This document shows positions 15,946-50,907 of a stretch of DNA of 64,000 nt, piece by piece (position 1 is the first letter of the stretch; each line of letters starts with the position of its first letter). A program made the translations under genes and the position numbers. Origin of the DNA: Gammaproteobacteria bacterium (lineage in GTDB: Bacteria > Pseudomonadota > Gammaproteobacteria > Francisellales > CACEW01); the NCBI GenBank assembly GCA_965662575.1, contig CBFIHN010000001.1:26852-90851 (forward strand), given 5' to 3'. The notes below the pieces were generated by a model. That model saw nothing but the letters and a program-made list of their open reading frames with translations. It did not search any database and was not told where the DNA came from.

Positions 15946-17763
15946 TCATCCGATAAACTCCGGAACCAGCTGCTTAATTTTCTGCCGAAGTGCTGCATCA
16001 CCGACGACTGAAAACAGCATTTGTAACTCTTGATCAAATGCTACAAAATCAACCTGCTTTTTATTGGCAATAAGAATTTTTGCTTGCTCAGTTTTGGTTA
16101 ATGGCTCTTTGGCATAAAATAATTCTTCATATAATTTTTCACCTGGACGCAACCCAACATACTGAATATCAACTTCTTCATACGGTTTTTTGCCTGATAA
16201 GGTAATGAGCTGCTCAGCAAGATATTTAATCTTAACTGGCTCACCCATATCTAACACAAAAATTTCTCCCCCTTGACCCATGGAACCAGCCTGTAAAATC
16301 AATTGGCAAGCTTCAGGAATAGTCATAAAGAAACGTTCAATATCAGGGTGCGTCAAGGTGAGCGGACCACCCTTTTTCAACTGCTGTTTAAATAAGGGAA
16401 CAACACTACCCGCCGAGCCCAACACGTTACCAAAACGCACGGTAACATATTGGGTTGTTGACTGTTCATTGAGATTCTGACAGTAAACCTCAGCAATACG
16501 CTTTGATGCGCCCATAATATTGGCTGGATTTACAGCTTTGTCGGTAGATACTAAAACAAACTTCTCGACGCTAAACTGATCAGCAAGTTTGGCTATAACT
16601 TGCGTACCATGCACATTATTAAGCACTGCCTGTTCAGGTTGATACTCCAATAACGGCACATGCTTATACGCTGCGGCATGGAAAATCACTTGTGGTTGAT
16701 AGCGCTGCATCAGTTCAACCATTATCTTTTCATTCGCAATTGAAGCTAAACGAAAGTCTAATGAACGATGTGAACCCTGTAATTGTTGCTCAATTTGATA
16801 GAGGTTAAACTCACTATGATCCACCACAATCAATTGCTGCGGCATCGATAAATTTAAAATCTGTCGGCATAACTCTGAGCCAATTGAACCGCCACCACCG
16901 GTTACCATAACGACTTTATGATCTAGAAAGGATTTCATGAGTTGATGATCTAACTGCACCGGATCACGACCTAACAAATCCGCTAATGAAACTTCTTTGA
17001 TTTCTGATGCAGAAACTCGCCCAGAATTTAAATCACTTAAGCTCGGCAAAACTTTAAGTTCTACTGATAAATCTTTGCACTCAGTAACGAGCTCTTGCAT
17101 TTTTTTGGCTGACAGCGAGGGAATTGCGATCACGATCAGCTCGATATGAAAACGATTGATAGTGGACTTAAGCTCCTTCAGCAAACCGACAATTTTGACG
17201 CCACGAATCTTACGCCCTTTCAATGATTTGCTATCATCTAAAATACCAACACACTGATAAGGCTTAGTGCGCAGATGATCAATATCACGCAAGAATAAAT
17301 CCGCACCGCGACCACCGCCAATAATTAAAGTTCTCTTTTGCTCACTCTGCCCTCGCAGTATTCGCCCACGAATTCGCCAATAACGCACAAATGCTCGTGA
17401 TCCCACCATCAAAATTAATAAAAAAATGGGGTATAAGACAAAAATGGATCGTGGGACATGATTCAGCTTTTGTAATAAAAACAATAATGCCGCTAGTACC
17501 AAGGTTGCAATAATAATACTTTTGACCATCGAAAAAACTTCTAAGATCGAGGTAAAACGCCACACCTGACGGTCAATGCCATAAAATTTAAATACCACAG
17601 CATTGACTAGTAGCACCCAAGGGATTAAATCAAACGCACCATGCCACGCGGTATGTTCAAAGTTAAAACGCACATAATAGGCCAGCAGCCAGCTGGCTAG
17701 CACTAAAACTAGGTCATAAAAAAATACAGCCCAACTGGAAAGGTTTGATAAATTTTTGCGCAT
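15946..17763 (-). CDS. Membrane-anchored nucleotide-sugar 4,6-dehydratase (CapD/PglF/WbpM family)
   Basis: 605 aa. Four N-terminal TM helices, then two Rossmann-type regions (IIGGGRGA and VTGGGGSIGSEL) and the C-terminal dehydratase core. Confidence 0.85.
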   Translation of the reverse strand: MRKNLSNLSSWAVFFYDLVLVLASWLLAYYVRFNFEHTAWHGAFDLIPWVLLVNAVVFKFYGIDRQVWRFTSILEVFSMVKSIIIATLVLAALLFLLQKLNHVPRSIFVLYPIFLLILMVGSRAFVRYWRIRGRILRGQSEQKRTLIIGGGRGADLFLRDIDHLRTKPYQCVGILDDSKSLKGRKIRGVKIVGLLKELKSTINRFHIELIVIAIPSLSAKKMQELVTECKDLSVELKVLPSLSDLNSGRVSASEIKEVSLADLLGRDPVQLDHQLMKSFLDHKVVMVTGGGGSIGSELCRQILNLSMPQQLIVVDHSEFNLYQIEQQLQGSHRSLDFRLASIANEKIMVELMQRYQPQVIFHAAAYKHVPLLEYQPEQAVLNNVHGTQVIAKLADQFSVEKFVLVSTDKAVNPANIMGASKRIAEVYCQNLNEQSTTQYVTVRFGNVLGSAGSVVPLFKQQLKKGGPLTLTHPDIERFFMTIPEACQLILQAGSMGQGGEIFVLDMGEPVKIKYLAEQLITLSGKKPYEEVDIQYVGLRPGEKLYEELFYAKEPLTKTEQAKILIANKKQVDFVAFDQELQMLFSVVGDAALRQKIKQLVPEFIG

Positions 17764-21521: not shown

Positions 21522-21583
21522 TTACAAGAACCTCAGAGCATTTCTTATATGGCATTATAGCAGCACCCCAGAGAAAAAAAAGA

Positions 21584-21634: not shown

Positions 21635-21678
21635 TTTATAGACGATCTGCATGAAATTGACTCAATATAATCAATCCG

Positions 21679-21894
21679 CTATAACTCCCAAGGATTAAGC
21701 AACTCTAACCCAGGAATATCAAAATTTTTTAAATTTCGGGTGACCAAAACCATATCATGGTGTAAGGCAGTGGCCGCCAATAAGCTATCAATGTGAAACA
21801 GCGAGCAAAAATGAACCTCAACTGCAAAATTGCAAAATTTTTCTGTAAATTTTAAGTTGAAGATTAAAAAACCGTCTAAAGCCGAAGGCATCAT
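21679..21894 (-). pseudogene. vapC: Truncated PIN-domain toxin (vapC) remnant, no antitoxin gene
   Basis: The translation ...ALDGFLIFNLKFTEKFCNFAVEVH...IDSLLAATALHHDMVLVTRNLKNFDIPGLELLNPWEL matches the C-terminal half of VapC toxins (D-hh-IAAtAl...LvTrN..dF..vpgl.l.nPw). The N-terminal ~60 aa with the first catalytic Asp are absent. Only 41 bp separate it from the upstream gene, leaving no room for vapB. Confidence 0.5.
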
Positions 21895-21935
21895 ACGAAT
21901 ATGAATAGTATGACTTAATTAGCAAACCAAGCAGC

Positions 21936-23130: not shown

Positions 23131-24300
23131 TTACATGGCACCCAAACAAACTTCCGCAATAATTTTTAATTGCGCAGCAACTTGCTCCTCGCACAAAGTT
23201 GGATGAATTAAAAACACCAATGACGTTGCAGTTAACTCCGCTGCATTTTTTAATCTTGCCTCTGGTTCCAACCCCAAATCAGTAAAGACTTTTTCTTGGT
23301 AAATTTCAGAACAGCTACCCGAGAAGCATGGGATACCACGATTAACTAGCTCAGCCATTAATCGATCTCGGCTCCAGCCTTGCTTTAGCTTAGATAGGTC
23401 AACCTGCGTATAGTATTTATAATTTGCATGCTTGATATCAGATTGCTTTAGATCCATAACTTTGAAACAGTCAATTTTAGCTAGACCTTCTGAAAACATC
23501 TGCGCTAATTTGGCTCGCTGTACTAACCAATCAGGCAATTTCTTGAGCTGGCAACGCCCAATCGCAGCTTGCATTTCCGTCATCCGCCAATTAGTTCCTA
23601 CCGCTTCATGCAGCCAACGAAAGCCTAAGGGGTGTTGCTTATGATAAACGGTATCATAGTTTTTACCATGATCTTTGACTGCCCATAGTTTTTGCCATAA
23701 AGCAGTATCATTGGTGGTTACCATGCCACCCTCACCACCCGTGGTCATAATCTTATCTTGGCAAAAGGAGAACGAGGCAATATGCCCCCAAGAACCAATT
23801 TTTCTACCTTGATATTCCGCACCATGGGCCTGCGCACAATCTTCAATAACAAATAGATTATGACTTTTCGCCAGATCCATAATTTTATCCATTTCACATG
23901 GCCAACCGTTGAAGTGCACTGGAATAACTGCTTTAGTTTTTTTTGTTAATTTCTCTTTAATCGTATCAACTGTGATATTTTGTGAATCTAGGTCCACATC
24001 AGCGAATATTGGCGTAGCGCCACACATCAATACGGCACTAGCTGTGGCAACAAACGTTTTGCAAGGCACAATCACTTCATCACCAGGACTAATGCCCAAA
24101 ACTCGTAAGGCAGCTTCAATGGTGACTGTGCCATTAGACATTGCAACCGCATGTTTGGCGCCAACACACTCAGCAAACTCGTTTTCAAATAAGCGGCCTT
24201 GCTCGCCGGTCCAATAATTGACTTTGCCGGATTTTAATACTTGCTCAACGGCTGAAATTTCATCTTCTGCAAAGTGGGGCCATGGGGATGTTAAATTCAT
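23131..24300 (-). CDS. DegT/DnrJ/EryC1-family sugar aminotransferase (PglE-like, C4 amination of a 4-keto-6-deoxy-HexNAc)
   Basis: 389 aa. Fold-type I sugar aminotransferase with PLP-lysine context FSFCQDKIMTTGEGG. It lies in a PglF/E/D/C-like set. Confidence 0.8.
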   Translation of the reverse strand: MNLTSPWPHFAEDEISAVEQVLKSGKVNYWTGEQGRLFENEFAECVGAKHAVAMSNGTVTIEAALRVLGISPGDEVIVPCKTFVATASAVLMCGATPIFADVDLDSQNITVDTIKEKLTKKTKAVIPVHFNGWPCEMDKIMDLAKSHNLFVIEDCAQAHGAEYQGRKIGSWGHIASFSFCQDKIMTTGGEGGMVTTNDTALWQKLWAVKDHGKNYDTVYHKQHPLGFRWLHEAVGTNWRMTEMQAAIGRCQLKKLPDWLVQRAKLAQMFSEGLAKIDCFKVMDLKQSDIKHANYKYYTQVDLSKLKQGWSRDRLMAELVNRGIPCFSGSCSEIYQEKVFTDLGLEPEARLKNAAELTATSLVFLIHPTLCEEQVAAQLKIIAEVCLGAM

Positions 24301-24309: not shown

Positions 24310-24924
24310 TTAAATTCTCCTAGCAGGATTACCAACTACAGTAACCCCTGCATCAATATCTTTTGTGACAACTGCGCCTGAGCCGACTGTCGCCCAAGCA
24401 CCAATAGAAACTCCAGGCAATACCACAACACCAGCACCAACCAATGCACCCTCACCAACTTTTACACCACCACAAAGTGTCGTGTTTGGTGCAATATGGG
24501 CATGGTTACCAATGACACAATCGTGCTCAATAATTGCTGCAGTATTAATAATGACATTTTCACCTATTACAGAGTCTGCATTAATAATAGCGCCAGGAAA
24601 AATCACACTACCTGGCCATACCGTTGCATATTTAGATACTAAAGAAGAGCTTGACATAGTAACCGCGGCCGAACATTGTGGCTGTAACTGGCCAAACTTA
24701 GCTTTTCTAGTTTTATTGTCGCCAATTGCAATAATAATGCTCTCACATGACTTCACAGAAAATTCACCAAAAGGTTGAATCTCTGAGCCTAATACCAATT
24801 GCCCTTGCTTACTGACGTCATCATCAAAAACAGTAACCGAATACTTGTGTGCCTTTAAAATATCAAGCACAACCTTGGCATGACCTCCTGCACCGATAAC
24901 AGCAATATTTTTATTATCAGGCAT
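24310..24924 (-). CDS. NeuD/PglD-family sugar N-acetyltransferase (left-handed beta-helix)
   Basis: The preferred start, [19 protein letters not shown] (24924), overlaps the upstream gene's end. It has the N-terminal Rossmann-like NeuD domain and C-terminal hexapeptide repeats ([24 protein letters not shown]). Confidence 0.8.
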
Positions 24925-25540
24925 TTTCTTGGTTTTCCTTAGAAGATTGGTGATTCCCTCGAAACTTTTCCATCGTCGCTTCACCTTGCTGGTTGATATC
25001 CGAACGTTTTAGCACCTTCAAAAAAGTCATCCACAAAATTTTTATATCTAACCAGAAAGACTGGTGCTCAACATACCATACATCTAGCTTGAATTTCTCT
25101 TGCCAACTGATGGCGTTGCGACCGTTCACTTGAGCCCAACCAGTAATTCCCGGTCTAACTTGATGTCGTTTTTTTTGCTCTACATTATACAAAGGTAGAT
25201 ACTCAACTAATAGCGCACGCGGCCCAACAAAACTCATATCACCTTTCAATACATTCAATAACTGTGGCAGCTCATCTAAGCTAGCACTACGCAAAAAACG
25301 ACCAAAAGAGATTAACCGCTGCTTATCGGGTAATAATTCGCCTTGCTGATCACGCTGATCGGTCATTGTACGTAGTTTATAGATAGTAAAAATCTCTTCG
25401 TTTTTACCTGGGCGTTGTTGTTTAAATAAAACCGGTGAGCCCAATTTGGTGCGCACCAAAATTAGCAATAATAATATTAAAGGCGAAAATACAATTAGCA
25501 AGAGCGAAGATAATAATAGGTCGAATAGGCGCTTGATCAT
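24917..25540 (-). CDS. Initiating phosphoglycosyl transferase, small monotopic type (PglC/WbaP C-domain family)
   Basis: 207 aa. An N-terminal re-entrant helix, then [25 protein letters not shown] and PGITGWAQV, the motifs of bacterial sugar transferases. Confidence 0.85.
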
Positions 25541-26766
25541 GAAACACCTTTAAGCAGTCTATCTAGCCTATTTAAATATTGATTAGCCAAAGCTTCATAG
25601 GAGCGGTGTTGCAAAATCCATTGTCGGCCCTTTTCGCCAACTGCCTTTCGTTGCTCAGCGGTTAACGCAGCGAACTTGAGCAACTCTTTTTTAATCACCT
25701 CTGGCTCTGAACTATCAATAAATTCACCACACACAGCCTCATTAATCATTGAAGGATACCCGGCATAGCTGGCAATAATGGGTTTTGCCGTCAGCATATA
25801 CTCAACCACTTTATTCATGGACTGACCATAATCCCAAACTTTTGAATGATGCACAGATAGATAGACCAAATCGCAATGATCTAAAAAACAAGCAACTTGC
25901 TCCTGGGGCACTCGTCCCAAAAAAATGACATTAGAACACTCTGCAAGTTCAGCTTCAAATTGGTTTTCCAAAGCACCACCACCTAATAGCGCAAAGTGAA
26001 TACCCTGGTCATCTTTAAGCAATTTAATTGTTTGAACAAACGGCTCTAAGGCGTTAGTAATACCCATACTACCGGTATAGCCAACAATCAGCTTACCTTT
26101 TGGTAAAACATTTGCAAAGGCATCGTCATTTACAGTAAAGGCATTACCAGCTCGACTTTCTCGATCAAACCCTAGTGGCGAACAAAAAAAAGGGCGCTCA
26201 TAGCCTAACATATTGCGCACATGCTGATCGAGTTTTGGCATAGTGCCAACAATTAAATCCGCTTTCTTATAAGCAAATTTTTCTATCCAACCTATCAACA
26301 AAACCAATGGGTGCCATTTTGAGAACCCACCCTCTTCAGTCATGGTTAACGGCCAGATATCACGAACCTCAAACACCAACTTGGCCTTATATTTACGCTT
26401 TAAATAATGACCATAGAAGACAGTAAAAATAGACAGCGATGAAACAATAACCACATCAGGTTTCTCAAGCTTTTTCCTAGAAAACCTAAATAGTTTCCAC
26501 TCAAAATCAAGCCAGCTCAGAATTCTTGATATAGAAGCCGTTTTTTGATATTTCTTAGTTTTCAGCCAATAAACGGGAACATTGTCTACCTGCTCAAAAT
26601 TGTAGGTTTTATCAGTGCTTGGAAACTGGCAAAAGTGATTGGCATCAGAAGTAATTAAAGTTGCATTATGGCCCTGCTTAACAAACTCTTTGGTTAGATA
26701 AAACAGTCGCGCCATCGTGCCATACTTTGGCAAACTGGCATATTTTGAAATGCACAAAATATTCAA
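25537..26766 (-). CDS. Glycosyltransferase family 4 (WbuB-like)
   Basis: 409 aa GT-B protein. The N-terminus ([16 protein letters not shown]) and the C-terminal E-x7-E-type region are typical of GT4. Its stop overlaps the PglC-like start. Confidence 0.75.
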
Positions 26767-28590
26767 TTACGACTCCTGATACAAGCGTGGAATACGATTG
26801 ACCACATCGATCACCTGCTTAAAGTCCATGCCTAATGCATCTAAGTACCAACGAATATTGGCATATCGCGGTTGATTTTCATCAGCCACCAATTTCAAAG
26901 CTTCCTCACGCGTCATTTGCCCTTCGCGGATTTGGTTACTTCTAAAGGTGTCATGCTCTGTAAACCCAGCGACAGTGTAATAAACATAATTATAAAACGC
27001 AGCGGTACCATCGCCAATGCGCCAAGTGGTGCTAGTATCTACCGCTTTTTCCCAATCATATTCACCGAGTAACGTGTCGTCAATAACTTTCTCATCCCAA
27101 CGCCAATAATCAAAAATATGGAAGTAGTCTTTTTTCTCGGTAAAACTGCGGTAGTACTCTCCAGATAAGGTATCCCACAAAGAGCGATTAAAATAACCAG
27201 GGCTTTGCAACATCGCTTTGAAGCGCTTACTTTGATAGCGCAATTGTTTAGCAATACCATGACTGTAAACTTTCTCTTCCTCAAAGTAAGGCTTAATACC
27301 TAAAAAACCCGCTTTAAAGTGAGTTACTTCCAGCGGATTAACACCCCACAAATTGATGTCAATACCCGTTTGTTTTTTCACTTCTTCAACATAACGAAAA
27401 AAGTGTTTATCGCCTGCGGTTAAAATACTAATCATCCCAAGGTGAGGCGACTTCAACCATGCCTTAAGATTCATCGCAATATTGCGACGTTTTTTGCCAA
27501 TATCGGCAGCAACAATAATATTTTCAACGCCCAACTGTGCGCACATCCGACTGATATTGCGTCGACCTAAATCTGTCACCATACCCCAATCATAGGTATA
27601 GGTTACCGGCTTCATTTTGAGCTCGTTGACAATTAAATGTAAGCCATAGCAACTATCACGCCCACCTGAAAACGGCACAATACAATCATTGCTATTTGCT
27701 CGTCGATAAGGTTCTACCAACTCAAACAATTCTTCTTTGGGTTTAGGGTTATTACGCGGAGTGTAATGATGGCAATAATTACAAACGCCTTCTTCATCAA
27801 AATGAATATAAGGCATGGTCTCTGGCAAGATGCAACGCGTACAGCGTTTTAGCTCTGGCTGAGGATAAACCAATATTGCCTCTTCTTCCTTATTAAATAG
27901 AAGTTCGGGAATTAAGTCTTGCTGACGAGATTTATAGTCGACAATATCAAAGTCTTTATTGGCCTTTGGAATATCCAATATTTTTACAGTCTTAACTTGC
28001 TCAATAGCTTGGCAATTAATTTGAGTTAAAGGATAACTTTCTGAAGAAAAATACCAGTCACCCTCACTCTGCCCCAAATATAAGCTACCATTATTGGAAA
28101 ACAATAGTAGTTTACCCAGGTTAGGTAATAATAGTGCACAGGCAACAACACCTTTGCATAAACCTAAAATTTTCTCTGCTAGATCAGCTTCAGAACCACC
28201 ATCAACTAAATGCTGCTCAGCAATACCAACAATGACTTCCGAATCAATTTTCTGCTGGCGCTTAACGTCTAGCTGCTGCCAAATGTCATCAGCATTCACA
28301 ATAATGCCATTATGTACAGCCGCAATTTGCCCATGAACAACTGGCTGATTATCTGCCAGCCCATTGGTAATTAGCCTGCTATGCCCAAATACGACTTTCG
28401 CATTGCCAAGCTTGGTTTTTTTTAGCAGCTTCTCAATAGAGTAGTCTGCACGTGCAATTTTATAGCTGCCAGCATGATCAAAAATCAAACCACTAGAGTC
28501 CATACCACGCTGCTCAGCATGAACAACTAGTGTTTTTAATTTATCTTGATTGATGCCAGAAGTTGAAATTTGACCGAATATGCCGCACAT
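26767..28590 (-). CDS. Fusion protein: class-II (Ntn) glutamine amidotransferase domain + N-acetyl-sugar amidotransferase (WbpG/WbuX/PseA-type PP-loop)
   Basis: 607 aa. N-terminal MCGIFG (catalytic Cys2), GHSRLITNG and AVHNGIIVN indicate a class-II (Ntn) GATase. These are followed by a zinc ribbon (CTRCILPETMPYIHFDEEGVCNYC) and PP-loop VPFSGGRDS, matching the stand-alone paralog at 34926-36083. Confidence 0.75.
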   Translation of the reverse strand: MCGIFGQISTSGINQDKLKTLVVHAEQRGMDSSGLIFDHAGSYKIARADYSIEKLLKKTKLGNAKVVFGHSRLITNGLADNQPVVHGQIAAVHNGIIVNADDIWQQLDVKRQQKIDSEVIVGIAEQHLVDGGSEADLAEKILGLCKGVVACALLLPNLGKLLLFSNNGSLYLGQSEGDWYFSSESYPLTQINCQAIEQVKTVKILDIPKANKDFDIVDYKSRQQDLIPELLFNKEEEAILVYPQPELKRCTRCILPETMPYIHFDEEGVCNYCHHYTPRNNPKPKEELFELVEPYRRANSNDCIVPFSGGRDSCYGLHLIVNELKMKPVTYTYDWGMVTDLGRRNISRMCAQLGVENIIVAADIGKKRRNIAMNLKAWLKSPHLGMISILTAGDKHFFRYVEEVKKQTGIDINLWGVNPLEVTHFKAGFLGIKPYFEEEKVYSHGIAKQLRYQSKRFKAMLQSPGYFNRSLWDTLSGEYYRSFTEKKDYFHIFDYWRWDEKVIDDTLLGEYDWEKAVDTSTTWRIGDGTAAFYNYVYYTVAGFTEHDTFRSNQIREGQMTREEALKLVADENQPRYANIRWYLDALGMDFKQVIDVVNRIPRLYQES

Positions 28591-28598: not shown

Positions 28599-29738
28599 TT
28601 AAACACAGCGTATTTGATGAGAATATCGCTTATCTAATGTCTCATCAACGCCTTTAGATTGGATAAAAGTGATATAATAAAAACTAAAAATCATAAAATC
28701 ATAAAATCCTGGAAAAGACAGTGTATCAAAAGCTAGCCTTGCCATTACAATCAAAAATAATATTAGCTCAACCAATTTCAACCGAGAAGACACACGAATA
28801 AACAACAGCAAACACAACAAAATGAAAGGCAGCCCCATGTAATGGAAACCTCTAATAAAAGAATTGTGAGGATTATGATGGAAGGAATTAATCAATGCTG
28901 TATATGGATGTCCAAAAATAAAGTCTGATATATGCCACTGACTCATATCGAAATAACCAGACCAGATGTGGTAGCGAGGGGTCTGTAGACCTTCATGGAA
29001 GTTGCTATGACTGATTGCATCTAGGATATATGAGAAAAAAACAGGCATGCCGACACCAAGCCCAACAATTACAACAACAGCCAAAATGACCTTAACACGG
29101 AAAGTCTGTCGTTTGTATAACAATAATACTGCCAACAAAAACAATACAAAAGCCAAGCCTAAACTACTCCGACCATATGCCAAAAAACACAGGAGCAAAG
29201 TAATAATAATTGAATAAACAGGTAATTTTTTATATACACGGTAATGCAATAAAGCATAAAAGCTCTGAGTTAAAATTAAAATTCCTCCCACCTCATTCCT
29301 ACTACCGTCAACAAAATGTGACAGCAAAAAAGGATTTAACCAAATTTTTTGACTGGATATAAAAAAAATATAGATTAAAGTCATTATGATAAAAGTAGTG
29401 CAAATGGCAAAAGCTAACTGCTTTAGCGCAGGGAGAGAAAAGCCTCGAAATAGCTGTTGGGCAATTAAAAGATTCGCAAAAAATAAAACAGGAAAAACTG
29501 GCTGAGTATAATCATCATATCGCCAGACATTTAAAACAGCGATTAAAACACCTAAGATTGCACATATAAACAGGCTGTCAACGTAGACTTTTTTAGAAAA
29601 ACCAACCAAAAAGGACAACAAAGCAATAACTTCTAAAATCAAAAACAAATTATTGCCTGTAATAGCATACAAAGTAATGCACATAAAATAGCCATAAACA
29701 AAGGCAAGATTCAAATTTAATGCATTAACCCTCAGCAT
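28599..29738 (-). CDS. wzy: O-antigen polymerase/ligase-family membrane protein (Wzy_C-like)
   Basis: 379 aa with ~10 predicted TM segments in an AT-rich gene. A periplasmic-loop motif (HHNPHNSFIRGFHYMGLPF) resembles the Wzy_C signature (H-N-x-[FY]-[IL]...G). Confidence 0.6.
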   Translation of the reverse strand: MLRVNALNLNLAFVYGYFMCITLYAITGNNLFLILEVIALLSFLVGFSKKVYVDSLFICAILGVLIAVLNVWRYDDYTQPVFPVLFFANLLIAQQLFRGFSLPALKQLAFAICTTFIIMTLIYIFFISSQKIWLNPFLLSHFVDGSRNEVGGILILTQSFYALLHYRVYKKLPVYSIIITLLLCFLAYGRSSLGLAFVLFLLAVLLLYKRQTFRVKVILAVVVIVGLGVGMPVFFSYILDAISHSNFHEGLQTPRYHIWSGYFDMSQWHISDFIFGHPYTALINSFHHNPHNSFIRGFHYMGLPFILLCLLLFIRVSSRLKLVELILFLIVMARLAFDTLSFPGFYDFMIFSFYYITFIQSKGVDETLDKRYSHQIRCV

Positions 29739-32879: not shown

Positions 32880-33541
32880 TTATCAGCACCAAAAATATCT
32901 TTAGCAACATTATAACGACTTGGCTTAACAAGCTCTGAAGGCGTACTGCCAAGAACAACTCGATTGCACTCAATATTTTTTGAAACGATAGCACTACCTG
33001 CACCAAAAATAACATTATCACCAATAGTGCAGTCACCGATGATCGATGACTTACTGTATAGCATAACACCCGAGCCAAAGGTTGGATATTTGCCATCTAG
33101 CTTCGAACCAATAGTGCAGTTCTGGTATACCACAAAATAATCACCATATTGCGCATTACCTAGCACGGTGCCAAGCGGATGAACAAATAGAAAAATATCT
33201 GGCAACTTCACTTTATAAAAAGCGTCAATACCATGCAAATATTTATTAAGCAAAAATACTTTTGCCGCTAAACCTTCATTACTTGTTTCTAACCAGATGC
33301 AATGGCTTAGCAGATACAAAAGCATTGCATAATGGTCGCCATTTAAGTGATTAAATAGAAAGTCTTTACCATCATAAAAGTAAGGTCGTTTAATATGCCG
33401 AAAACAAAACTCTAGTCGCTCTAGAGCTAGCTTAAAACCTAAGTCAAAGTCAGAGTTGTTCAATAGATTGTCGGGGAAAAAAATACTTATTTGTTTTCTC
33501 ACATAAAGCTTCAATTGCTCGGTGCTTAAACTAAAAATCAT
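32876..33541 (-). CDS. Left-handed beta-helix acyltransferase (serine-acetyltransferase-like)
   Basis: 221 aa. A helical N-domain, then IHPLGTVLG-type and hexapeptide repeats (GSGVMLYSKSSIIGDCTIGDNVIFGAGS). Confidence 0.7.
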   Translation of the reverse strand: MIFSLSTEQLKLYVRKQISIFFPDNLLNNSDFDLGFKLALERLEFCFRHIKRPYFYDGKDFLFNHLNGDHYAMLLYLLSHCIWLETSNEGLAAKVFLLNKYLHGIDAFYKVKLPDIFLFVHPLGTVLGNAQYGDYFVVYQNCTIGSKLDGKYPTFGSGVMLYSKSSIIGDCTIGDNVIFGAGSAIVSKNIECNRVVLGSTPSELVKPSRYNVAKDIFGADK

Positions 33542-34314
33542 TAGACTAACTTAGTTTTTTTTAAACTTTTGACCGGCACGCCTCGGCTCGCCAGATAAGC
33601 CGCTGCGCGAGTGGGATTATTATCACCAAAATGATACAAGCTACCAATAGCTACCGCATGAGCGCCTGCTTGAAAAGCAGCATACAAATGGTCAAAATTC
33701 CCTGCGCCGCCAGAAATAATCACCGGTATCCTCACCTGAGCAGCCATTTCTGTTAGCAATGCAATATCATAGCCTTGCTTAGTGCCGTCATGATCTATTG
33801 AAGTCAATAAAATTTCACCTGCACCATGAGCTTCGAGTTGTCGCACATGGACATCCAAATTTACTGACTCACAAACATGTCCTGATGCTGAATAAACTTT
33901 ATAGCTGCCATTTTCTTGCCTCACATCAACACCACAAACTATACATTGTTTGCCAAACTTCTTTGATGCTTGCTGAATAAAATCATAATTATTGGTTGCG
34001 GCTGAAGTAATCACTACTTTGTCAGCACCTGACTGAAGTAGTTTTCTAATCTGCTCCAGAGTTTTTATACCGCCACCAACAGTTAAAGGAATAAAACATT
34101 CTTTTGCGACTTTCTCTATTAGATGATGATCAAACTCACTGTTTTTAGCTGTCGCTTCTATATCTAAAAAAACCAATTCATCGACATTATGCGAATTGTA
34201 GATTCTTGCTTGCGAAACCGGGTCACCTGTATCTCGATACTGACTAAATAATTTGCCTTTAACCATTCGCCCCTGCTTTAATAGCAAAATTGGAATAATT
34301 CGCTTCTTCAACAT
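33541..34314 (-). CDS. HisF-like cyclase/ammonia-channel subunit of a glycan amidotransferase (WbuZ-like)
   Basis: 257 aa (beta/alpha)8 protein. RIIPILLLKQGRMVKG at the N-terminus and GADKV/SGGAG phosphate-binding motifs. Paired with a HisH-like gene inside a glycan operon rather than a his operon. Confidence 0.8.
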   Translation of the reverse strand: MLKKRIIPILLLKQGRMVKGKLFSQYRDTGDPVSQARIYNSHNVDELVFLDIEATAKNSEFDHHLIEKVAKECFIPLTVGGGIKTLEQIRKLLQSGADKVVITSAATNNYDFIQQASKKFGKQCIVCGVDVRQENGSYKVYSASGHVCESVNLDVHVRQLEAHGAGEILLTSIDHDGTKQGYDIALLTEMAAQVRIPVIISGGAGNFDHLYAAFQAGAHAVAIGSLYHFGDNNPTRAAAYLASRGVPVKSLKKTKLV

Positions 34315-34320
34315 AGACCC

Positions 34321-34929
34321 TTACTCACCCTCACAAAAATTCTCTATAATGGATAAGCCCGCCTCATGGCTTTTCTCAGGGTGGAACTGCACACCCAATA
34401 CATTGCCTTTAGCTACCGTTGAAATGAATTCATTACCATAACCGGTAACGGTAACTACCGAGGAATTGTCTTGCGGTACAAAATGGTAAGAATGAACAAA
34501 ATAAACGTCTGATCCATCTAAATTTTTGCCAACCACAGGATGGTCACATATTAAGCGCATATCATTCCAGCCAACATGTGGAACAGCAAGTGGCACAACC
34601 TCCAGTGGCTTAACCTCACCAGATATAATATCAAGCCCATCATGTTCTCCGTGCTCATAGCCTTTTGTTGCCAAAAGCTGCATGCCCAAGCAAATACCTA
34701 AATAATCACGCCCTTGCTCAACATGCCTCAGAATAGCCTGGTCTAAGCCTTTTTCTTTTAGGTTATTCATCGCAACACCAAACGCACCGACACCTGGTAC
34801 AATCAATTTTTCTATACCATCTAATTGTGCCGCCTGGTCGACCACCTCATAATCGAACCCAAGATATTCTAAGACGTTAACGACAGATGCAATATTACCC
34901 ATGCCATAGTCTAGCAAACCTATAGTCAT
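34321..34929 (-). CDS. HisH-like class-I glutamine amidotransferase subunit (WbuY-like)
   Basis: 202 aa. GMGNIASV, the catalytic Cys in GICLGMQLL and a C-terminal HPE. Confidence 0.8.
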   Translation of the reverse strand: MTIGLLDYGMGNIASVVNVLEYLGFDYEVVDQAAQLDGIEKLIVPGVGAFGVAMNNLKEKGLDQAILRHVEQGRDYLGICLGMQLLATKGYEHGEHDGLDIISGEVKPLEVVPLAVPHVGWNDMRLICDHPVVGKNLDGSDVYFVHSYHFVPQDNSSVVTVTGYGNEFISTVAKGNVLGVQFHPEKSHEAGLSIIENFCEGE

Positions 34930-36083
34930 TTATTTTGCTCTCGATACCACTGTGCAAAGTCCCATAATTTTTCGGCATCTTCTGTTTTACTGAAGTCATG
35001 TTCATAAGGTGCAATCTGATGTTCTTTTAGAATTTTATTAAACTCTTCCTCGGTCATCTCTAAATACTCTAGCAGAATATCTAAAGATGGCGGGCGCTTG
35101 CCTTCTTTTTTAACGAGCTCTTTTGCTGTTTCTGTTGTCATCCGGTCATTCCGAATATCAAATGCCGCAATCTGCGAAACTCGAGAGTAACCACGCTTAG
35201 TAAACTTAATATAATCTCTTGGGCCTTGCATAAAACATTCTATTTTTTCACAACTACTGTTACAACCTGTTGGCACACCTTCTAATTCGTCAGATTTCCA
35301 ACCCAACTCACGCATAATAACTTTGGTTTGTTCCACGTGGTCCCAGGGAATAAAACTGCCCAATGTTAACGGCAATAATTTAACACGACGAATATCCTTA
35401 CGACTTGGGTAGGTGTAGGGCATCAAGTCACGACGGTCAATAGGATGTTCTTCACTATTAATCATGCCATACATGTCATCGGCGGATATACCCAAGTTTC
35501 TCACTAAGTTAAATTTACGCTCATCTTCATAATCCATCGCATCATTGAGATAGTCATAATAGGCAGAAAATTCAGCCAACGGCTCGCCATAAAAAATCAG
35601 TGGCACATTAAATTTAATCCCTAACTGCAGTGGGTAGGAATAAATCCCCGTATGGCAATGCCAACAAAAGTCCGTTTTGCGGATAAATGCCTCTTTCATC
35701 AAGCGCTTAACCACATGCCAGTTAGGCGTAAACTCAATAACATCAACCCCAAGCCTTTTAAATGTCCGCTCATTATTTTTCTCAATTGTCGGACGCATAA
35801 AACCGTGATTAAAACGCACAACCAAGGGCTTTAACTTATATTCTTTCATCAGGTAATAGAGCTGAAAAGTGCTATCCTTACCACCACTAAATGGCACAAT
35901 ACAATCATAATCATATTGGCCCCTATGCTTTTCAATTAAGTCGTCGAGTAATTTTTTGCGCGCATCCCAGTCAATATTTTTCTTATGCTCAGCAGAGCGA
36001 CATATATTGCAAACACCATTACTATCAAACTCAATGGTTTCATAGGTTTCTGGCAGCAAACACTTTTCACATCGACGCAACAT
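34926..36083 (-). CDS. N-acetyl-sugar amidotransferase (WbuX/WbpG/PseA family, PP-loop ATP pyrophosphatase)
   Basis: The preferred start is MLRRCEKCLLPETYETIEFDSNGVCNIC (36083). It has a zinc ribbon plus PP-loop VPFSGGKDS. The longer ORF-track start (36137) would overlap the upstream gene by 41 nt. Confidence 0.8.
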   Translation of the reverse strand: MLRRCEKCLLPETYETIEFDSNGVCNICRSAEHKKNIDWDARKKLLDDLIEKHRGQYDYDCIVPFSGGKDSTFQLYYLMKEYKLKPLVVRFNHGFMRPTIEKNNERTFKRLGVDVIEFTPNWHVVKRLMKEAFIRKTDFCWHCHTGIYSYPLQLGIKFNVPLIFYGEPLAEFSAYYDYLNDAMDYEDERKFNLVRNLGISADDMYGMINSEEHPIDRRDLMPYTYPSRKDIRRVKLLPLTLGSFIPWDHVEQTKVIMRELGWKSDELEGVPTGCNSSCEKIECFMQGPRDYIKFTKRGYSRVSQIAAFDIRNDRMTTETAKELVKKEGKRPPSLDILLEYLEMTEEEFNKILKEHQIAPYEHDFSKTEDAEKLWDFAQWYREQNK

Positions 36084-36096
36084 AATTACTTTTACC

Positions 36097-37389
36097 TCAA
36101 TTAAACTTTCTAAAGACCGGACGAATAGTATCGCCAATCAAATACGATTCATAGCCCTCTGTTAAAGCTTTTTTATAGATGGGGAACACTTTGTGCAAAG
36201 CCGCCTTAGTCAGCTCCAACTCTCGCTCACCATGACTGAAAGAAAGCGCAATCCATGGCATCAAGACATTGGCTTTAATCATTTCTTGTGAAAACAATGT
36301 GCGCAAACCCAAACAGTTATCACCGGCTTCATTTCGCGTTATATAATAAGGACTACAAGCAATACCACCCGCATGGAAACTTTGCCCTAAGCCATGCTCC
36401 CTCGCACAAGCATTCATTAACTCGATTAACTGTCCTCCATATTTCCACAAATGCGGAATAACTTTACCCTCTTGTAAAATTTCCATGGTTTTAATAAAAG
36501 CACCTAAACCACACATTTCTGCGCCATGAGTAGTTGAAAGCAAAAACACTCGTTCACGCCCTTCAAACTCAATACTACCTAGCTCCATAATTTCACGCTT
36601 TCCAGCAACAGCAGCAACAGAAAAACCATTAGCCATTGCCTTACCAAAAGTACACAGGTCAGACTCTATATCATAATAATGTTGCGCGCCTTTTAGGTGC
36701 CAACGAAAACCTGTAATCATTTCATCCAAAATAAAAACAGCACCATTTTTATGGCATAGTTCTTTAACCTTATGCAAAAATTGGTCTTTTGGATGCTCAG
36801 TAACTGACGGCTCTAAAATAACGGCTGCGATTTTGTTGGGGCATTGATCAAATAATGCCTCTAGACTCTGCAAATCGTTATACGAGAATACTTTTGTCGT
36901 TGTGATATCTTTTTCCAGCACTCCTTTTTGGATTGGCGTCGAGCCAATAAACCAGTCGTCATAACTAAAAAATGGGTGATCATGGCAACGGACAACCATT
37001 TCTCGACCTGTATATGCACGCGCCAACTTAATTGCTGCAGTTGTTGCAGTTGAGCCATTTTTAGTAAATTTCACCATATCGACAGAATCTATTAAGTCCA
37101 CTAGCAACTCAGCTGCTTCAAGCTCTACCATACTGGGGCGAGTTAGGTTATTACCTTTCTCTATCTGTGCAATAGCTGCTTGATTCACCTGCTCATTTGC
37201 ATAACCTAAGTTTACTGCGCGCAGTGCCATACCATAATCCAAAAATTCTCGACCTTTTGGATCATATACATAGGCACCATTGCCTTTATCCAAAATTTGC
37301 GGCGCATTCTCAGGGTATTGGTCAAAACCACGAGAATAAGTATGCGCACCGCCAGGAATTACATTTAAAAGACGACCTTGATAATTCAT
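36097..37389 (-). CDS. Class-III PLP aminotransferase (glutamate-1-semialdehyde aminomutase-like)
   Basis: 430 aa. GGAHTYSRG at the N-terminus, DEMITGFR and Lys context TFGKAMANGF. Confidence 0.75.
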   Translation of the reverse strand: MNYQGRLLNVIPGGAHTYSRGFDQYPENAPQILDKGNGAYVYDPKGREFLDYGMALRAVNLGYANEQVNQAAIAQIEKGNNLTRPSMVELEAAELLVDLIDSVDMVKFTKNGSTATTAAIKLARAYTGREMVVRCHDHPFFSYDDWFIGSTPIQKGVLEKDITTTKVFSYNDLQSLEALFDQCPNKIAAVILEPSVTEHPKDQFLHKVKELCHKNGAVFILDEMITGFRWHLKGAQHYYDIESDLCTFGKAMANGFSVAAVAGKREIMELGSIEFEGRERVFLLSTTHGAEMCGLGAFIKTMEILQEGKVIPHLWKYGGQLIELMNACAREHGLGQSFHAGGIACSPYYITRNEAGDNCLGLRTLFSQEMIKANVLMPWIALSFSHGERELELTKAALHKVFPIYKKALTEGYESYLIGDTIRPVFRKFN

Positions 37390-47541: not shown

Positions 47542-48597
47542 TCAAGAATACAAACACATCGGTAAGCTAGCTACCTGCTCAGATAGGCGCTCAGATATTG
47601 GGCAATTAGCCGACTCATCTAAAAACGCTGGCTGTTTATGCAATGGCACGGGGTAATGAACCGTTGTTGGAATACCTTGTGCCTTAAGCTCTTCTTGGAA
47701 CTGAGCACGATTTGGCACACGCACCGTATATTGTCCATAAACATGCTCACGATTGGGCATCACTTTGGGTGTAATGACTTCTGTGCCAGCATATTGTTCC
47801 TGGTATTGCTGCGCATTTTTTTGTCGTGCTTTTAATTCTTGATCAAAGTATTTAAGCTTTACCTTTAAAATCGCTGCTTGCAGGGTATCTAAACGCGAGT
47901 TAATACCGATGCGGCTATGATAATAGCGTTTGCTTTGGCCATGCACTCGAATTTCACGCATCGCTTGTGCAACTTGATCATCAGAGGTAAATATTGCCCC
48001 CCCATCACCATAACAGCCTAAAGGCTTGGTGGGGAAAAAGCTGGTCGTGGCAATATCAGAAACATTACACGACTTACGGCCTTTATATTTTGCACCAAAG
48101 CTTTGTGCGGCATCTTCTATGACATAAATTTTATGGCCGAGCCTTTGTGAATATTGTTCTGCAACACGGTTGATTTTATCCATATCAGGGATTTGACCAT
48201 AGAGCGAAACCGGAATAATGGCTTTGGTTTTATCCGTGATTTTATCAGCAATTAAACGATGGTCGATTAAATAACTGTCTTCTTCAATATCAACAAATAC
48301 CGGCTTTGCCCCTAGCAAAGCAATAGTTTCGGCAGTTGCAATAAATGTGAACGGCGTCGTGATCACCTCATCTCCAAGACCAACACCAATTGCCATCAAG
48401 GCAATTTGCAATGCATCGGTACCATTAGCACAGCTAACACAGTGTTTTGCACCCGTATAGCTTTCCAGTTGTTCTTCAAGCTCGCGTACTTGTGGGCCCA
48501 TGATGAACTTACCTGATGCCATAACATCTAGAACAGCCTGATCAATCTCTTGTTTATGCGCTTGGTACTGCGCCTGAATATCAAAAAATGGTTTCAC
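47542..48597 (-). CDS. wbpE: UDP-2-acetamido-2-deoxy-3-oxo-glucuronate aminotransferase (DegT family, WbpE/WlbC-like)
   Basis: The N-terminus KPFFDIQAQYQAHKQEIDQAVLDVMASGKFIMGPQV is WbpE-like, and the PLP-Lys context is FFPTKPLGCYGDGG. The preferred start is GTG 48597, after the wbpD stop. The longer ORF-track start overlaps wbpD by 95 nt. Confidence 0.8.
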   Translation of the reverse strand: MKPFFDIQAQYQAHKQEIDQAVLDVMASGKFIMGPQVRELEEQLESYTGAKHCVSCANGTDALQIALMAIGVGLGDEVITTPFTFIATAETIALLGAKPVFVDIEEDSYLIDHRLIADKITDKTKAIIPVSLYGQIPDMDKINRVAEQYSQRLGHKIYVIEDAAQSFGAKYKGRKSCNVSDIATTSFFPTKPLGCYGDGGAIFTSDDQVAQAMREIRVHGQSKRYYHSRIGINSRLDTLQAAILKVKLKYFDQELKARQKNAQQYQEQYAGTEVITPKVMPNREHVYGQYTVRVPNRAQFQEELKAQGIPTTVHYPVPLHKQPAFLDESANCPISERLSEQVASLPMCLYS

Positions 48598-48613
48598 CTT
48601 TACTAGTACCTTA

Positions 48614-49186
48614 TTAATCTCTGAGAAAAACTCTATCACCTTCCAACCGATATTGACAGCCATCTTGATCAACTGCAACATCTTGCGTATCAAACTGCAG
48701 CTTCTCACCTAATCGATCAACCCAGCCTATCTGCCGTGCTGGAACGCCTGCCATTAAGCCAAAAGGCTTCACGTCTTTGGTCACTACCGACCCCGCACCA
48801 ATTAATGCATACTCACCGACCGTAACACCACAGACAATCGTTGCATTCGCACCCACTGAACAGCCTTTTTTAAGCAGGGTTTTCTTAAACTCTTCTTTAC
48901 GATTGACATGGCTGCGTGGATTAATCACATTGGTAAACACCATCGACGGCCCGAGGAACACATCATCTTCACACTCAACACCATCATAGATCGAAACATT
49001 GTTTTGAACTTTGATATTATTGCCAAGGGAAACATTCGGCCCAACGACACAGTTTTGCCCAAAGGAACAACGTTCACCAATTTTGCTGCCAGAAAGAATA
49101 TGACAGAAATGCCAAATTTTAGTATCCATGCCGATTTCAACTTGGTCGTCGATATAACTACTTTCGTGGACGAAATAGTTACTCAC
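48614..49186 (-). CDS. wbpD: UDP-2-acetamido-3-amino-2,3-dideoxy-glucuronate N-acetyltransferase (WbpD/WlbB-like)
   Basis: 190 aa LbH protein. It has the WbpD-like N-terminus [26 protein letters not shown]. The GTG start overlaps the HEPN gene's last codons by 8 nt. Confidence 0.8.
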
Positions 49187-49655
49187 TATAGAATCCTTTT
49201 TTTATAGAAACATTTTTGAGGTTTGAATAAATATCTAATAATTCGGAATGTGAACCGTAAATTTTATTGATTGCATCAGCCACTTCAGCATCATTTGTAC
49301 CATACTCATGCGCCAATTCATTACGCGCATTTCTAAAGTCTACCCAAGTATCTTTATCTAGAATCTCCATTTTCTCTAATCGATTCAAAAGGTCTAAAAA
49401 ACTTTGATTATCGGTATATTCTTTTTCCAAATGCAAATAAAGCTTAAAAAGCTTTTTCCCCATAGTGTCCTGAAGCTTTGAAAAGCGAAATAAAAACTGA
49501 TCTATACAACGCCCCTGGTTTTCATCTAAATGCTCGTATGCATCTCCAGTTAATGGCATAAATTTACCCATTAACTCAACAACCGAGGCAATGCGCTCCA
49601 CATGTCGGTCACACCCATAAAAAATTTGGATTAATTTTTGCTGTTCTACATTCAT
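49179..49655 (-). CDS. HEPN-domain protein (HI0074/HepT-like putative toxin)
   Basis: 158 aa predicted all-helical protein with the R-x4-H HEPN motif in [12 protein letters not shown]. Its start overlaps the upstream MNT gene's stop (ATGA). Confidence 0.7.
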
Positions 49656-49939
49656 AACAAAATCCCTGTACGCATGGCTTCTTGCTCAATCAACCTTTCT
49701 TGATCTTTCGCAATCACAATGTCAATTTTTTGCTCACCTATACGATCCTGTAATCGCATTGAAAATTGCGATTTCTGTTTAAACTCATCCACCAATTTTT
49801 GCGGACAAAGATATAAATCAATATCGCCACCACGACGGCTATCGTCAACTCGGCTACCAAACAAATAAACTTTGCCTTCACCAAAAACTTCAGCAAAGGT
49901 TTGTTTGATTGCCTGATGATCATAGTCACTGATACGCAT
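49652..49939 (-). CDS. Minimal nucleotidyltransferase (MNT/MntA-like putative antitoxin, Pol-beta superfamily)
   Basis: 95 aa. Motif LFGSRVDDSRRGGDIDLYL (G-S ... D-x-D) plus a third acidic residue in KIDIVI. Confidence 0.75.
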   Translation of the reverse strand: MRISDYDHQAIKQTFAEVFGEGKVYLFGSRVDDSRRGGDIDLYLCPQKLVDEFKQKSQFSMRLQDRIGEQKIDIVIAKDQERLIEQEAMRTGILL

Positions 49940-49947
49940 AATAAGGC

Positions 49948-50901
49948 TCAGCGACTAGCCGCTTCTTTTAACAAAGGATGATAATCACCTTGCAAACCCA
50001 ATGGTTTTAATTGGCGCACTTGGTAGACCGTTTCAATCGCCTGACGCGCTTTATCAATACCAAAGCCATTGCCTTTTAAAATTTCTTGATAACTTAACGT
50101 ATGCAAATCAGTAAACCCACCCGAAAACTCAATCTCTTCACCACCAATGGTAATCGAGCGATAAGTACGCTGAGATTTTTCTTTGATTTCATCAGGCAAA
50201 TTATTGGCATCAACACTTAAAAACCAACGCACGCGCGCTTGTTTAAACTCGAGATACCCTGCCATCGTCGCATCTTCAGCTAAATGCACTTGATTTTTAG
50301 TGACTTCACCAAACAACCAACCCAACATATCAAAAAAGTGCACACCGATATTGGTAACGACTCCACCAGATTTCTGCTCATCACCTTTCCACGAACGATG
50401 ATACCAGGCACCTCGACTGGTGATATAAGCCAAATCAACCTCATAAACTTTATCCGCATCGTCTTGCTCAATTTTTTTCTTGAGCTCAACCAAAGCTGGA
50501 TGCATGCGAAGCTGAAGAATATTATTAATTTTATGACTGCTTTGTTTCTCGGCAAGCTCTAAAGCTTCCAAATCATCTGGCGTTAGGGTTAATGGCTTTT
50601 CACAAATCGCATCGCAATCATGGTTTAAGGCAAAACGCACATGGGCATTATGCAAGTAGTTAGGCGAGCAAATACTGATATAATCAATCTGGTTACCTTG
50701 TGCCTGCCAGCGATTTAAATACGTATCCAACTGCTCAAGCTCAGTGAAAAAAGCAGCATCCGGAAAATAACTATCTAAAATCCCGACCGAATCAAAAGGA
50801 TCAAAACCTGCTCGCAAATTATTGCCTGTTTCTTTAATTGCCTTCATATGGCGTGGCGCGATATATCCTGCAGCACCAATTAATGCGAATTCTTTGTTCA
50901 T
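49948..50901 (-). CDS. wbpB: UDP-N-acetyl-2-amino-2-deoxyglucuronate 3-dehydrogenase (Gfo/Idh/MocA family, WbpB/WlbA-like)
   Basis: 317 aa. The N-terminus FALIGAAGYIAPRHMKAIKETGNNL is characteristic of WbpB. Confidence 0.8.
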   Translation of the reverse strand: MNKEFALIGAAGYIAPRHMKAIKETGNNLRAGFDPFDSVGILDSYFPDAAFFTELEQLDTYLNRWQAQGNQIDYISICSPNYLHNAHVRFALNHDCDAICEKPLTLTPDDLEALELAEKQSSHKINNILQLRMHPALVELKKKIEQDDADKVYEVDLAYITSRGAWYHRSWKGDEQKSGGVVTNIGVHFFDMLGWLFGEVTKNQVHLAEDATMAGYLEFKQARVRWFLSVDANNLPDEIKEKSQRTYRSITIGGEEIEFSGGFTDLHTLSYQEILKGNGFGIDKARQAIETVYQVRQLKPLGLQGDYHPLLKEAASR

Positions 50902-50907
50902 AAAGCT

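Follow-up and report, generated by a model that had tools for sequence, protein, structure and literature searches.

The fusion gene and its two domains

The 64,000-nucleotide stretch of gammaproteobacterial DNA analyzed here (hereafter the window; contig CBFIHN010000001.1, positions 26,852 to 90,851 of the forward strand) contains a gene that joins a glutamine-hydrolyzing domain to a domain resembling N-acetyl-sugar amidotransferases (NASATs). The gene (26767..28590, minus strand) starts with ATG and, according to the open reading frame (ORF) listing and translation, encodes 607 amino acids with no internal stop codons; the strand had not been stated in the earlier reading described below. 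A Shine-Dalgarno-like motif, AAGGAA, lies directly 5' of the ATG, and the stop codon abuts the start of a gene for a family 4 glycosyltransferase (GT4; 25537-26766). An earlier, sequence-only reading of this DNA had described the 607-residue ORF and quoted five motifs from it. All five are present: MCGIFG beginning at M1, GHSRLITNG (residues 69-77), NGIIVN (94-99), CTRC...CNYC (250-273), and SGGRDS (308-313).

The N-terminal part of the protein is a class-II glutamine amidotransferase (GATase) domain of the N-terminal nucleophile (Ntn) type, as the sequence-only reading had said. This domain (residues 1 to ~210; 27961..28590, minus strand, with the codon for the nucleophile Cys2 at 28585-28587) matched Pfam GATase_6 (39.5 bits; cut-off 27) and GATase_7 (36.4 bits; cut-off 25) over residues 63-188. 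Matches to the NCBIfam models for GlmS, PurF, and AsnB were confined to residues 1 to ~210, and the AsnB model TIGR01536 covered residues 2-201 only. We aligned 64 sequences from both clades of the family (see below) and used the alignment for calling conserved residues and for structure prediction. The glutaminase residues C2, R28, H70, R72, T75, G77, H93, G95, N99, D116, and E118 were invariant, and N94 was kept in at least 90% of the sequences. The protein thus has the Cys right after Met1 and the conserved Arg, Asn-Gly, and Asp residues (R72, N94-G95, and D116) of class-II enzymes.

The C-terminal part has the cysteine ribbon and PP-loop (pyrophosphatase loop) of NASATs. It is separated from the glutaminase by a poorly conserved linker (residues 211-247; 27850..27960, minus strand) whose mean identity was 42% inside clade A and fell to 7% in comparisons with clade B. 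The NASAT-like ATP-pyrophosphatase domain that follows (the synthetase domain; residues 248-607; 26770..27849, minus strand) contains the tetracysteine motif CXXCXn[GN]XCXXC as C250-TR-C253...G268-V-C270-NY-C273 (27772..27843), a motif reported to bind Zn in the Legionella pneumophila enzyme LpNASAT (PMC10607449). The PP-loop, S308-G-G-R-D-S313 (27652..27669), was invariant across the 64 aligned sequences. The NCBIfam model TIGR03573 (WbuX) matched residues 248-584 nearly end to end (model positions 2-330 of 344; E = 1.9e-41), and together with the motifs this bears out the assignment to the N-acetyl-sugar amidotransferase type made from the sequence alone. The score was 142.7 bits, below the curated membership cut-off of 203.2 bits, and no Pfam or NCBIfam model scored above its cut-off on this domain. 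The Pfam profile search gave no match to Asn_synthase (PF00733) anywhere in the protein, and the Pfam and NCBIfam searches found no SIS isomerase domains.

The predicted structure is consistent with two folded domains in a defined arrangement. An AlphaFold2 model made from the 64-sequence alignment had a mean predicted local distance difference test score (pLDDT) of 89 and a predicted template modeling score (pTM) of 0.90, values that indicate a defined inter-domain arrangement; pLDDT exceeded 90 over most of residues 1-210 and dipped in the linker. In Foldseek comparisons with the PDB, the N-terminal domain showed the four-layer alpha-beta-beta-alpha fold of Ntn enzymes and matched the GlmS glutaminase (1xff; TM-score 0.65; 24% identity) and EgtC (TM-score 0.64), and the C-terminal domain matched LpNASAT (8wex; E = 1.4e-14; target TM-score 0.59-0.61; ~20% identity), which was also found with phmmer (E = 7.7e-13). 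The whole chain matched AsnB/ASNS best and also matched GlmS and PurF, all with root-mean-square deviations (rmsd) above 20 Å, indicating the same classes of domains packed differently. Based on the profile matches, the conserved residues, and this confident two-domain model, we conclude that the fusion protein is an intact Ntn glutaminase joined to an intact NASAT-like domain with a predicted Zn ribbon and a PP-loop.

Family distribution and gene neighborhoods

The fusion gene of the window belongs to a highly conserved family that is found very widely, and it is typical of that family. A protein search with the fusion gave more than 7,700 matches. The best 120 were all 604-630 residues long, with 99-100% query coverage and 70-74% identity, and included proteins from Vibrio cholerae, Chryseobacterium, Aliarcobacter, Neisseria, Pelistega, Cellvibrio, Marinobacter, and Fastidiosibacter. 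The closest homologues were from an uncultured Coxiella metagenome-assembled genome (MAG) and Fastidiosibacter. With one genome taken per GTDB species, at least 364 species-level genomes contained a relative, a lower bound because the scan used exact patterns. The top match in this set was 74% identical, and the best 80 relatives (67-74% identity) spanned Gamma- and Betaproteobacteria, Bacteroidota, Campylobacterota, Verrucomicrobia, Planctomycetes, Actinomycetota, Patescibacteria, Spirochaetes, and Desulfuromonadaceae.

The synthetase domain is under strong purifying selection. Mean identity within the clade of the window protein (clade A) was 58% in the glutaminase, 42% in the linker, and 82% in the synthetase domain, the last a level of conservation that holds across Gammaproteobacteria, Bacteroidota, Campylobacterota, and Actinomycetota. 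Another clade with greater diversity (clade B; ~640-700 residues, 40-45% identical to the window protein) was reached through a homologue on a Solidesulfovibrio plasmid labeled 'QueC'. Its members include a Bordetella avium 'LPS biosynthesis protein' and proteins from Planctomycetes, Chlamydiota, Bacillota, Anaerolineae, Parcubacteria, and the archaeon Ca. Methanoperedens.

The synthetase lineage is essentially always fused. We searched the synthetase domain alone against 1.84 billion representatives of 50%-identity clusters and obtained 422 clusters at E <= 1e-30, 1,477 at E <= 1e-10, and 3,725 at E <= 1e-3. At least 220 residues preceded the match in 139 of the 150 best cluster representatives, and those inspected begin with MCGIFG or MCAILG. 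Two rare designs depart from this pattern: a stand-alone form without the glutaminase (P0386, 398 residues), and a protein that lacks the N-terminal glutaminase and has a polytopic membrane domain at its C-terminus (P0291, 756 residues). The sequence-only reading would have been set aside had the fusion been a common and already characterized form of the enzyme. Common it is, but our full-text literature searches found no characterization, description, or test of it, and the family is apparently visible in databases yet unstudied.

We find it scarcely credible that the gene is an artifact of two genes joined by a frameshift, or that it encodes a genuine glucosamine-6-phosphate synthase (GlmS). 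A frameshift, a possibility raised with the original observation, is excluded because hundreds of genomes obtained independently encode the same full-length architecture; over 100 of the full-length homologues come from separate assemblies, and we inspected 80 loci from 80 species. The GlmS possibility draws on the names given to homologues, which PGAP and JGI call 'glucosamine 6-phosphate synthetase' or 'GlmS'; other labels in the family are AsnB, TilS/MesJ, QueC, 'LPS biosynthesis protein', and hypothetical. The GlmS annotation is wrong: the GlmS models matched the glutaminase alone (residues 1 to ~209), at 67.8 bits against a cut-off of 381 (NF001484) and 62.1 against 418 (TIGR01135), and the SIS domains of GlmS are absent.

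The fusion gene is part of a single long polysaccharide locus on the minus strand of the window, given here in the order of transcription from 54908 to 15946. The locus begins with Ugd and PseC-like genes (52375-54908), followed by WbpA/TviB-like and WbpB-like genes, a 158-residue ORF, and WbpD-like and WbpE-like genes (47542..52155). The Wbp-type genes make up the pathway to UDP-GlcNAc3NAcA (UDP-2,3-diacetamido-2,3-dideoxy-glucuronic acid) and are the likely source of the substrate of the fusion. Next are a Wzx-like gene (46095-47525), a nonulosonic-acid module with ManC, GDP-mannose 4,6-dehydratase, and NeuB (31309-44542), and a gene for a 450-residue protein (29732-31084). A candidate Wzy-like polymerase with a weak, sub-cut-off Wzy_C match (28599..29738) is directly upstream of the fusion, and the GT4 gene with Pfam GT4/GT1 domains (hereafter GT4d; 25537..26766) is directly downstream. 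Further downstream are genes for a PglC-like small polyprenyl-phosphate sugar-phosphate transferase (24917..25540), a PglD/NeuD-like N-acetyltransferase (24310..24984; TIGR03570, 198.7 bits), a DegT/PglE-like sugar aminotransferase (23131..24300), three DUF4143 ATPases (17869-23048), and a PglF/WbpM-like membrane UDP-GlcNAc 4,6-dehydratase (15946..17763; Polysacc_synt_2, 390 bits). There is no WbpI 2-epimerase in the window.

The three paralogous AAA_14+DUF4143 ATPase genes (17869-19191, 20337-21521, and 21936-23048, minus strand) and an N-terminally truncated, NAD-epimerase/thioester-reductase-like fragment on the plus strand (19595-20380) split the PglE-like gene from the PglF-like gene; most related loci have this module uninterrupted. 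The PglD-like ORF is listed from a GTG codon and in that form shares 68 nt with the PglC-like gene. Because its profile match starts at residue 27, translation probably begins at an ATG further inside the ORF. An IS701-family transposase gene (363.8 bits) is at 56029-57060, downstream of the polysaccharide locus, and the GC content of the source contig is ~41.5%.

The window also contains a canonical three-component amidotransferase, as the sequence-only reading had noted. This set (33541..36137, minus strand) is inside the nonulosonic-acid sub-cluster and consists of WbuX (34926-36137; TIGR03573, 322 bits, above the cut-off), HisH (34321-34929; 213.6 bits), and a WbuZ/HisF-like protein (33541-34314; 293.5 bits, cut-off 299.7). 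The listed TTG start of WbuX at 36137 is probably too far upstream, and the likely start is an ATG at 36083. As had been proposed, the window thus has two evolutionarily unrelated routes of ammonia delivery, one through an Ntn class-II domain and one through a class-I HisH with a HisF barrel. The description of the two PP-loop enzymes as paralogous was too strong: in BLAST, only the first ~115 residues of the PP-loop domain of the fusion could be aligned with WbuX (39% identity), and this short alignment, together with the sub-cut-off TIGR03573 score, indicates that the PP-loop domain of the fusion is a diverged lineage.

The sub-cluster around the three-component set is unusual in its composition and encodes ManC, a bona fide GDP-mannose 4,6-dehydratase (580 bits), NeuB, a NeuD-like acetyltransferase, a xylose-isomerase-like TIM barrel protein, a CBS+LegC-like aminotransferase, a CMP-transferase, a glutamate-semialdehyde (GSA)-aminomutase-like pyridoxal phosphate (PLP) enzyme, WbuX/HisH/HisF, an acetyltransferase, a nitrilase-family CN hydrolase, and a PtmA-like short-chain dehydrogenase/reductase (SDR). 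Its product may be a GDP-mannose-derived, amidino-modified nonulosonic acid. The WbuX/HisH/HisF set would serve the nonulosonic acid and the fusion would serve the Wbp-type sugar.

The fusion gene is linked to GT4d and associated with genes for the Wbp-type sugar in many genomes. In 86 related loci, we assigned each ORF to a class by its BLASTP matches to the proteins of the window, counting genes within 6 kb of the fusion in 62 loci and within 10 kb in the 54 loci that had at least 9 kb of flanking sequence on both sides. A homologue of GT4d was within 6 kb downstream in 55/62 loci and was mostly the very next gene. Homologues of PglC (52/62), PglD (43/62), PglE (42/62), and PglF (30/62) were also near the fusion. 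At least two of WbpA, WbpB, WbpD, and WbpE were found in 32/54 loci, and a WbpI-like epimerase in 12/54; in several loci such an epimerase is directly upstream of the fusion. The Wbp genes of the window are themselves 19-25 kb from the fusion, which makes 32/54 a lower bound.

Other glutamine amidotransferases recur beside the fusion. A complete set of HisH, HisF, and a stand-alone NASAT was present in 10/54 loci, typically in the order HisH-HisF-NASAT-GT4-[WbpI]-fusion-GT4-PglC. The occurrence of both ammonia-delivery systems in one locus is therefore a recurrent design. The sequence-only reading had presented the window as a natural experiment on ammonia channeling; that is a fair description, but the locus is not special in this respect. 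The HisH and HisF proteins do not appear to be partners of the fusion, since they were found in only ~20% of the loci, there with a NASAT of their own, and none was found near the fusion in the E. coli, V. cholerae, or B. avium loci. Two Bacteroidota MAGs have HisH and HisF directly upstream of the fusion (L038, 8457-11827; L047, 3220-6589), and the ORF scan found no stand-alone NASAT in the 10 kb to either side of the L038 fusion or on the 8-kb contig of L047.

AsnB-like amidotransferases were found in 15/54 clade-A loci and also adjoin clade-B fusions. Three clade-B loci (L087, L090, and L091) have one or two AsnB-type genes beside the fusion, and L091 has a second fusion paralogue as well; these are glycan loci rich in family 2 glycosyltransferases (GT2). 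At least three different glutamine amidotransferases are apparently used for some glycans.

Candidate substrate and chemistry

An Escherichia O-antigen cluster points to the Wbp pathway as the source of the substrate. The fusion gene is present in two chicken E. coli genomes; one copy is at 11257-13086 of locus L006 (NZ_CP148493.1; WP_059274954.1). The O-antigen cluster of E. coli Z1323CEC0003, upstream of gnd, contains only genes for WbpB (Gfo/Idh/MocA), WbpA (TviB), WbpD (acyltransferase), WbpE (DegT), Wzx, Wzy, a GT4, a WbpI-like (WecB-like) 2-epimerase, the fusion, and a second GT4. The partner GT4 is 44% identical to GT4d of the window over its full length. There is no PglCDEF module in this cluster and no HisH, HisF, or NASAT, leaving the fusion as the only amidotransferase. 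With Wbp genes and without PglCDEF, the substrate in this cluster must come from the Wbp pathway and not from a bacillosamine module. We take the cluster to be the wbp gene set of Pseudomonas aeruginosa O5 in which the fusion stands where hisH-hisF-wbpG would be expected. The Wbp pathway leads to UDP-GlcNAc3NAcA and UDP-ManNAc3NAcA, the mannuronic acid form (PMC10622841), and the O-antigen of P. aeruginosa O5 is reported to contain ManNAc3NAcA and its acetamidino counterpart ManNAc3NAmA.

These findings bear on the possibility that the fusion acts on the first sugar, that is, on the 2,4-diacetamido-2,4,6-trideoxyhexose (bacillosamine type) made by PglCDEF, or on another N-acetyl sugar. The tightest synteny, GT4d-PglC-PglD-PglE-PglF, speaks for such a substrate, as does the presence of WbpABDE genes within 10 kb in no more than 32/54 loci. 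We consider it quite improbable nonetheless, because the E. coli cluster keeps the fusion and GT4d without PglCDEF, its only special sugar genes being WbpABDE and WbpI, and because Wbp genes can be more than 10 kb away, as they are in the window.

The E. coli cluster is probably the same as that of Escherichia albertii O1 (EAOg1). The E. coli fusion, Wzx, and Wzy proteins share 90%-identity clusters with E. albertii proteins, including entries from two E. albertii O-genotyping studies, and the pattern of accessions agrees with the EAOg1 strains described by Ooka et al. The publication on the O-antigen of E. albertii O1 (Zheng et al. 2017) describes it in its title as similar to that of P. aeruginosa O5.

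The O-antigen cluster of E. coli O180 serves as a control for the role of the fusion. The cluster (strain 14EC007) has rmlBDAC, WbpA, WbpB, WbpD, and WbpE, and a WecB-like epimerase, and has no amidotransferase of any type, including the fusion. The presence of WbpABDE and the epimerase without the fusion indicates that the fusion is an accessory modifier and not part of the core synthesis of ManNAc3NAcA. We had expected an amidotransferase in this cluster, on the premise of an O180 structure with ManNAc3NAmA, and dropped that premise. E. albertii EAOg1 is reported to cross-react with O180 antiserum (Ooka 2019), and the epitope common to the two is probably unmodified ManNAc3NAcA.

The O-antigen locus of B. 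avium has a clade-B fusion, with no HisH, HisF, NASAT, or AsnB within 10 kb. The B. avium O-chain reportedly carries a 2-acetamidino group on 2,3-diamino-glucuronic acid, with a free carboxylate and no uronamide. No other named Bordetella was among the 120 best relatives.

Based on these results, we suggest with moderate confidence that the fusion is a glutamine- and ATP-dependent amidotransferase that acts on a 2,3-diacetamido-hexuronic acid from the Wbp pathway and yields a product with an acetamidino group. An amidine is favored because of the NASAT ribbon and the near end-to-end TIGR03573 match, the apparent one-for-one replacement of hisH-hisF-wbpG in Escherichia, the presence of AsnB-type genes in the same loci, and the B. 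avium locus. From this evidence we infer a substrate, an amidine chemistry, and a channeling of ammonia, as follows. After removal of Met1, the N-terminal Cys2 of the Ntn domain would hydrolyze glutamine, and the ammonia would pass to the C-terminal NASAT-like PP-loop domain. This domain would adenylate a carbonyl oxygen of the sugar (ATP to AMP and PPi), and the ammonia would displace AMP, converting an N-acetyl group to an acetamidino group. The substrate would most likely be a UDP-2,3-diacetamido-2,3-dideoxy-hexuronic acid, presumably of the GlcNAc3NAcA type in the window because WbpI is missing there. The adjacent GT4 would then attach this product to the first sugar, which would be GlcNAc in Escherichia and, in the window, a sugar of the bacillosamine type initiated by PglC. 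In this scheme, the fusion would be a single-polypeptide functional analogue of HisH, HisF, and WbpG.

The fusion might instead be a uronamide synthase, whose PP-loop domain would adenylate a (2,3-diacetamido-)hexuronic acid at its C6 carboxylate, with the acid present as a UDP-sugar or lipid-linked, so that ammonia would give a carboxamide (GlcNAc3NAcAN-type) as with AsnB or WbpS. We regard this as the main rival, possible but less likely than an acetamidino product. An Ntn glutaminase followed by a PP-loop domain is the architecture of AsnB, and the best whole-chain structural matches were ASNS and AsnB. The C-terminal domain has diverged to below the NASAT cut-off, and the fusion is often beside a complete HisH/HisF/NASAT system, which could itself account for the amidine. 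However, there is no PF00733 match, and the domain has the NASAT-specific Cys4 ribbon and aligns with nearly all of TIGR03573. The reported free carboxylate of the B. avium O-chain is also at odds with a uronamide. In addition, the AsnB-like genes found in the same loci of both clades would be redundant. AsnB-type amidotransferases are the class to which uronamide formation has been assigned (PMC6025236), and their co-occurrence with the fusion argues for a different chemistry in the fusion.

Several observations weigh against our preferred assignment of an acetamidino-forming enzyme. The protein falls short of the TIGR03573 membership score, and its substrate pocket, and possibly its chemistry, may differ from those of canonical NASATs, judging from the divergence of the PP-loop domain. 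In 22/54 loci, the 10 kb around the fusion revealed no WbpABDE genes. The complete NASAT sets beside the fusion in 10/54 loci suggest that the fusion does something that a NASAT does not. PP-loop enzymes also amidate carboxylates (AsnB, NadE, and QueC), and uronamides of 2,3-diacetamido-uronic acids occur in Vibrio. Such uronamides are also documented in Bordetella, where the enzymes are unassigned as far as the reports describing them go (PMC2615507, PMC12041961). Lastly, our literature search found no biochemical or genetic data on any member of the family.

A broader possibility, which we consider rather doubtful, is that the fused lineage is a distinct enzyme family with a chemistry unlike both the amidine formation of WbpG and the amidation of AsnB, for example amidation or amidination of a lipid-linked unit, action at a second position of a diamino-uronic acid, or the forming of a cyclic amidine. 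The family would then be part of a horizontally mobile two-gene cassette with a dedicated GT4, by which many phyla would place a positively charged or neutralized uronic acid beside the sugar at the reducing end.

The sequence-only reading had predicted two distinct acetamidino substituents in one glycan. This is a plausible hypothesis. The canonical set is in the nonulosonic-acid sub-cluster and the fusion is associated with Wbp-type genes for diacetamido-uronic acids; a C6 carboxamide is possible for the product of the fusion. Acetamidino and uronamide groups neutralize or reverse the charge of acidic sugars, and shape the serology of O-antigens and capsules, the receptors of phages and tailocins, and immune recognition. 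A single-polypeptide, glutamine-dependent enzyme of the NASAT type would be far simpler to study biochemically than WbpG/HisH/HisF, and a correct assignment would repair thousands of annotations and improve the prediction of glycan structures from gene clusters. The logic of the domains is not very surprising to a specialist. The size, conservation, and misannotation of the family, together with a glycan structure that is already published, make it a cheap and worthwhile target.

Comparison with known amidotransferases

The fusion resembles known NASATs in its synthetase domain and differs from them in its source of ammonia. Like the members of TIGR03573 (WbpG, WbuX, PseA, PtmG, and AglX), it has a Cys4 Zn ribbon followed by an SGGxDS PP-loop and matches the model almost from end to end; like them, it is located in O-antigen and capsule loci, and like WbpG, it is tied to the WbpABDE(I) pathway for diacetamido-uronic acids. 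Unlike NASATs with HisH- and HisF-like partners (WbuY/WbuZ and AglY/AglZ), which depend on a class-I HisH and a HisF barrel, it carries a covalently attached Ntn class-II glutaminase. It also differs from canonical NASATs in the C-terminal two thirds of the synthetase domain, which are strongly diverged.

LpNASAT is the only solved relative of the C-terminal domain. We know of no substrate complex or activity for it or for the fusion. Both proteins have the Zn tetracysteine motif and the PP-loop, and their sequence similarity is limited to ~100 residues around these motifs; LpNASAT is a stand-alone protein. The paper on its structure, in its own words on the three-component system, presents little as known about the structure and function of that system (PMC10607449).

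The fusion resembles AsnB-type enzymes in its overall plan. As in WbpS of P. aeruginosa O6, its orthologue in Helicobacter pullorum, and the solved structures 1ct9 and 8sue, an N-terminal Ntn glutaminase with Cys1 is followed by a C-terminal PP-loop ATP pyrophosphatase, and the genes are in glycan loci. By analogy with these enzymes, an intramolecular ammonia tunnel is presumed. Unlike the AsnB type, the synthetase domain of the fusion has a Zn ribbon in place of an Asn_synthase domain, and the packing of the two domains is predicted to differ.

The glutaminase domain is nearer to that of GlmS than to that of AsnB (67.8 versus 39.5 bits). The fusion and GlmS have homologous N-terminal glutaminases, and in the fusion this domain is followed by a PP-loop domain instead of the SIS isomerase domains of GlmS.

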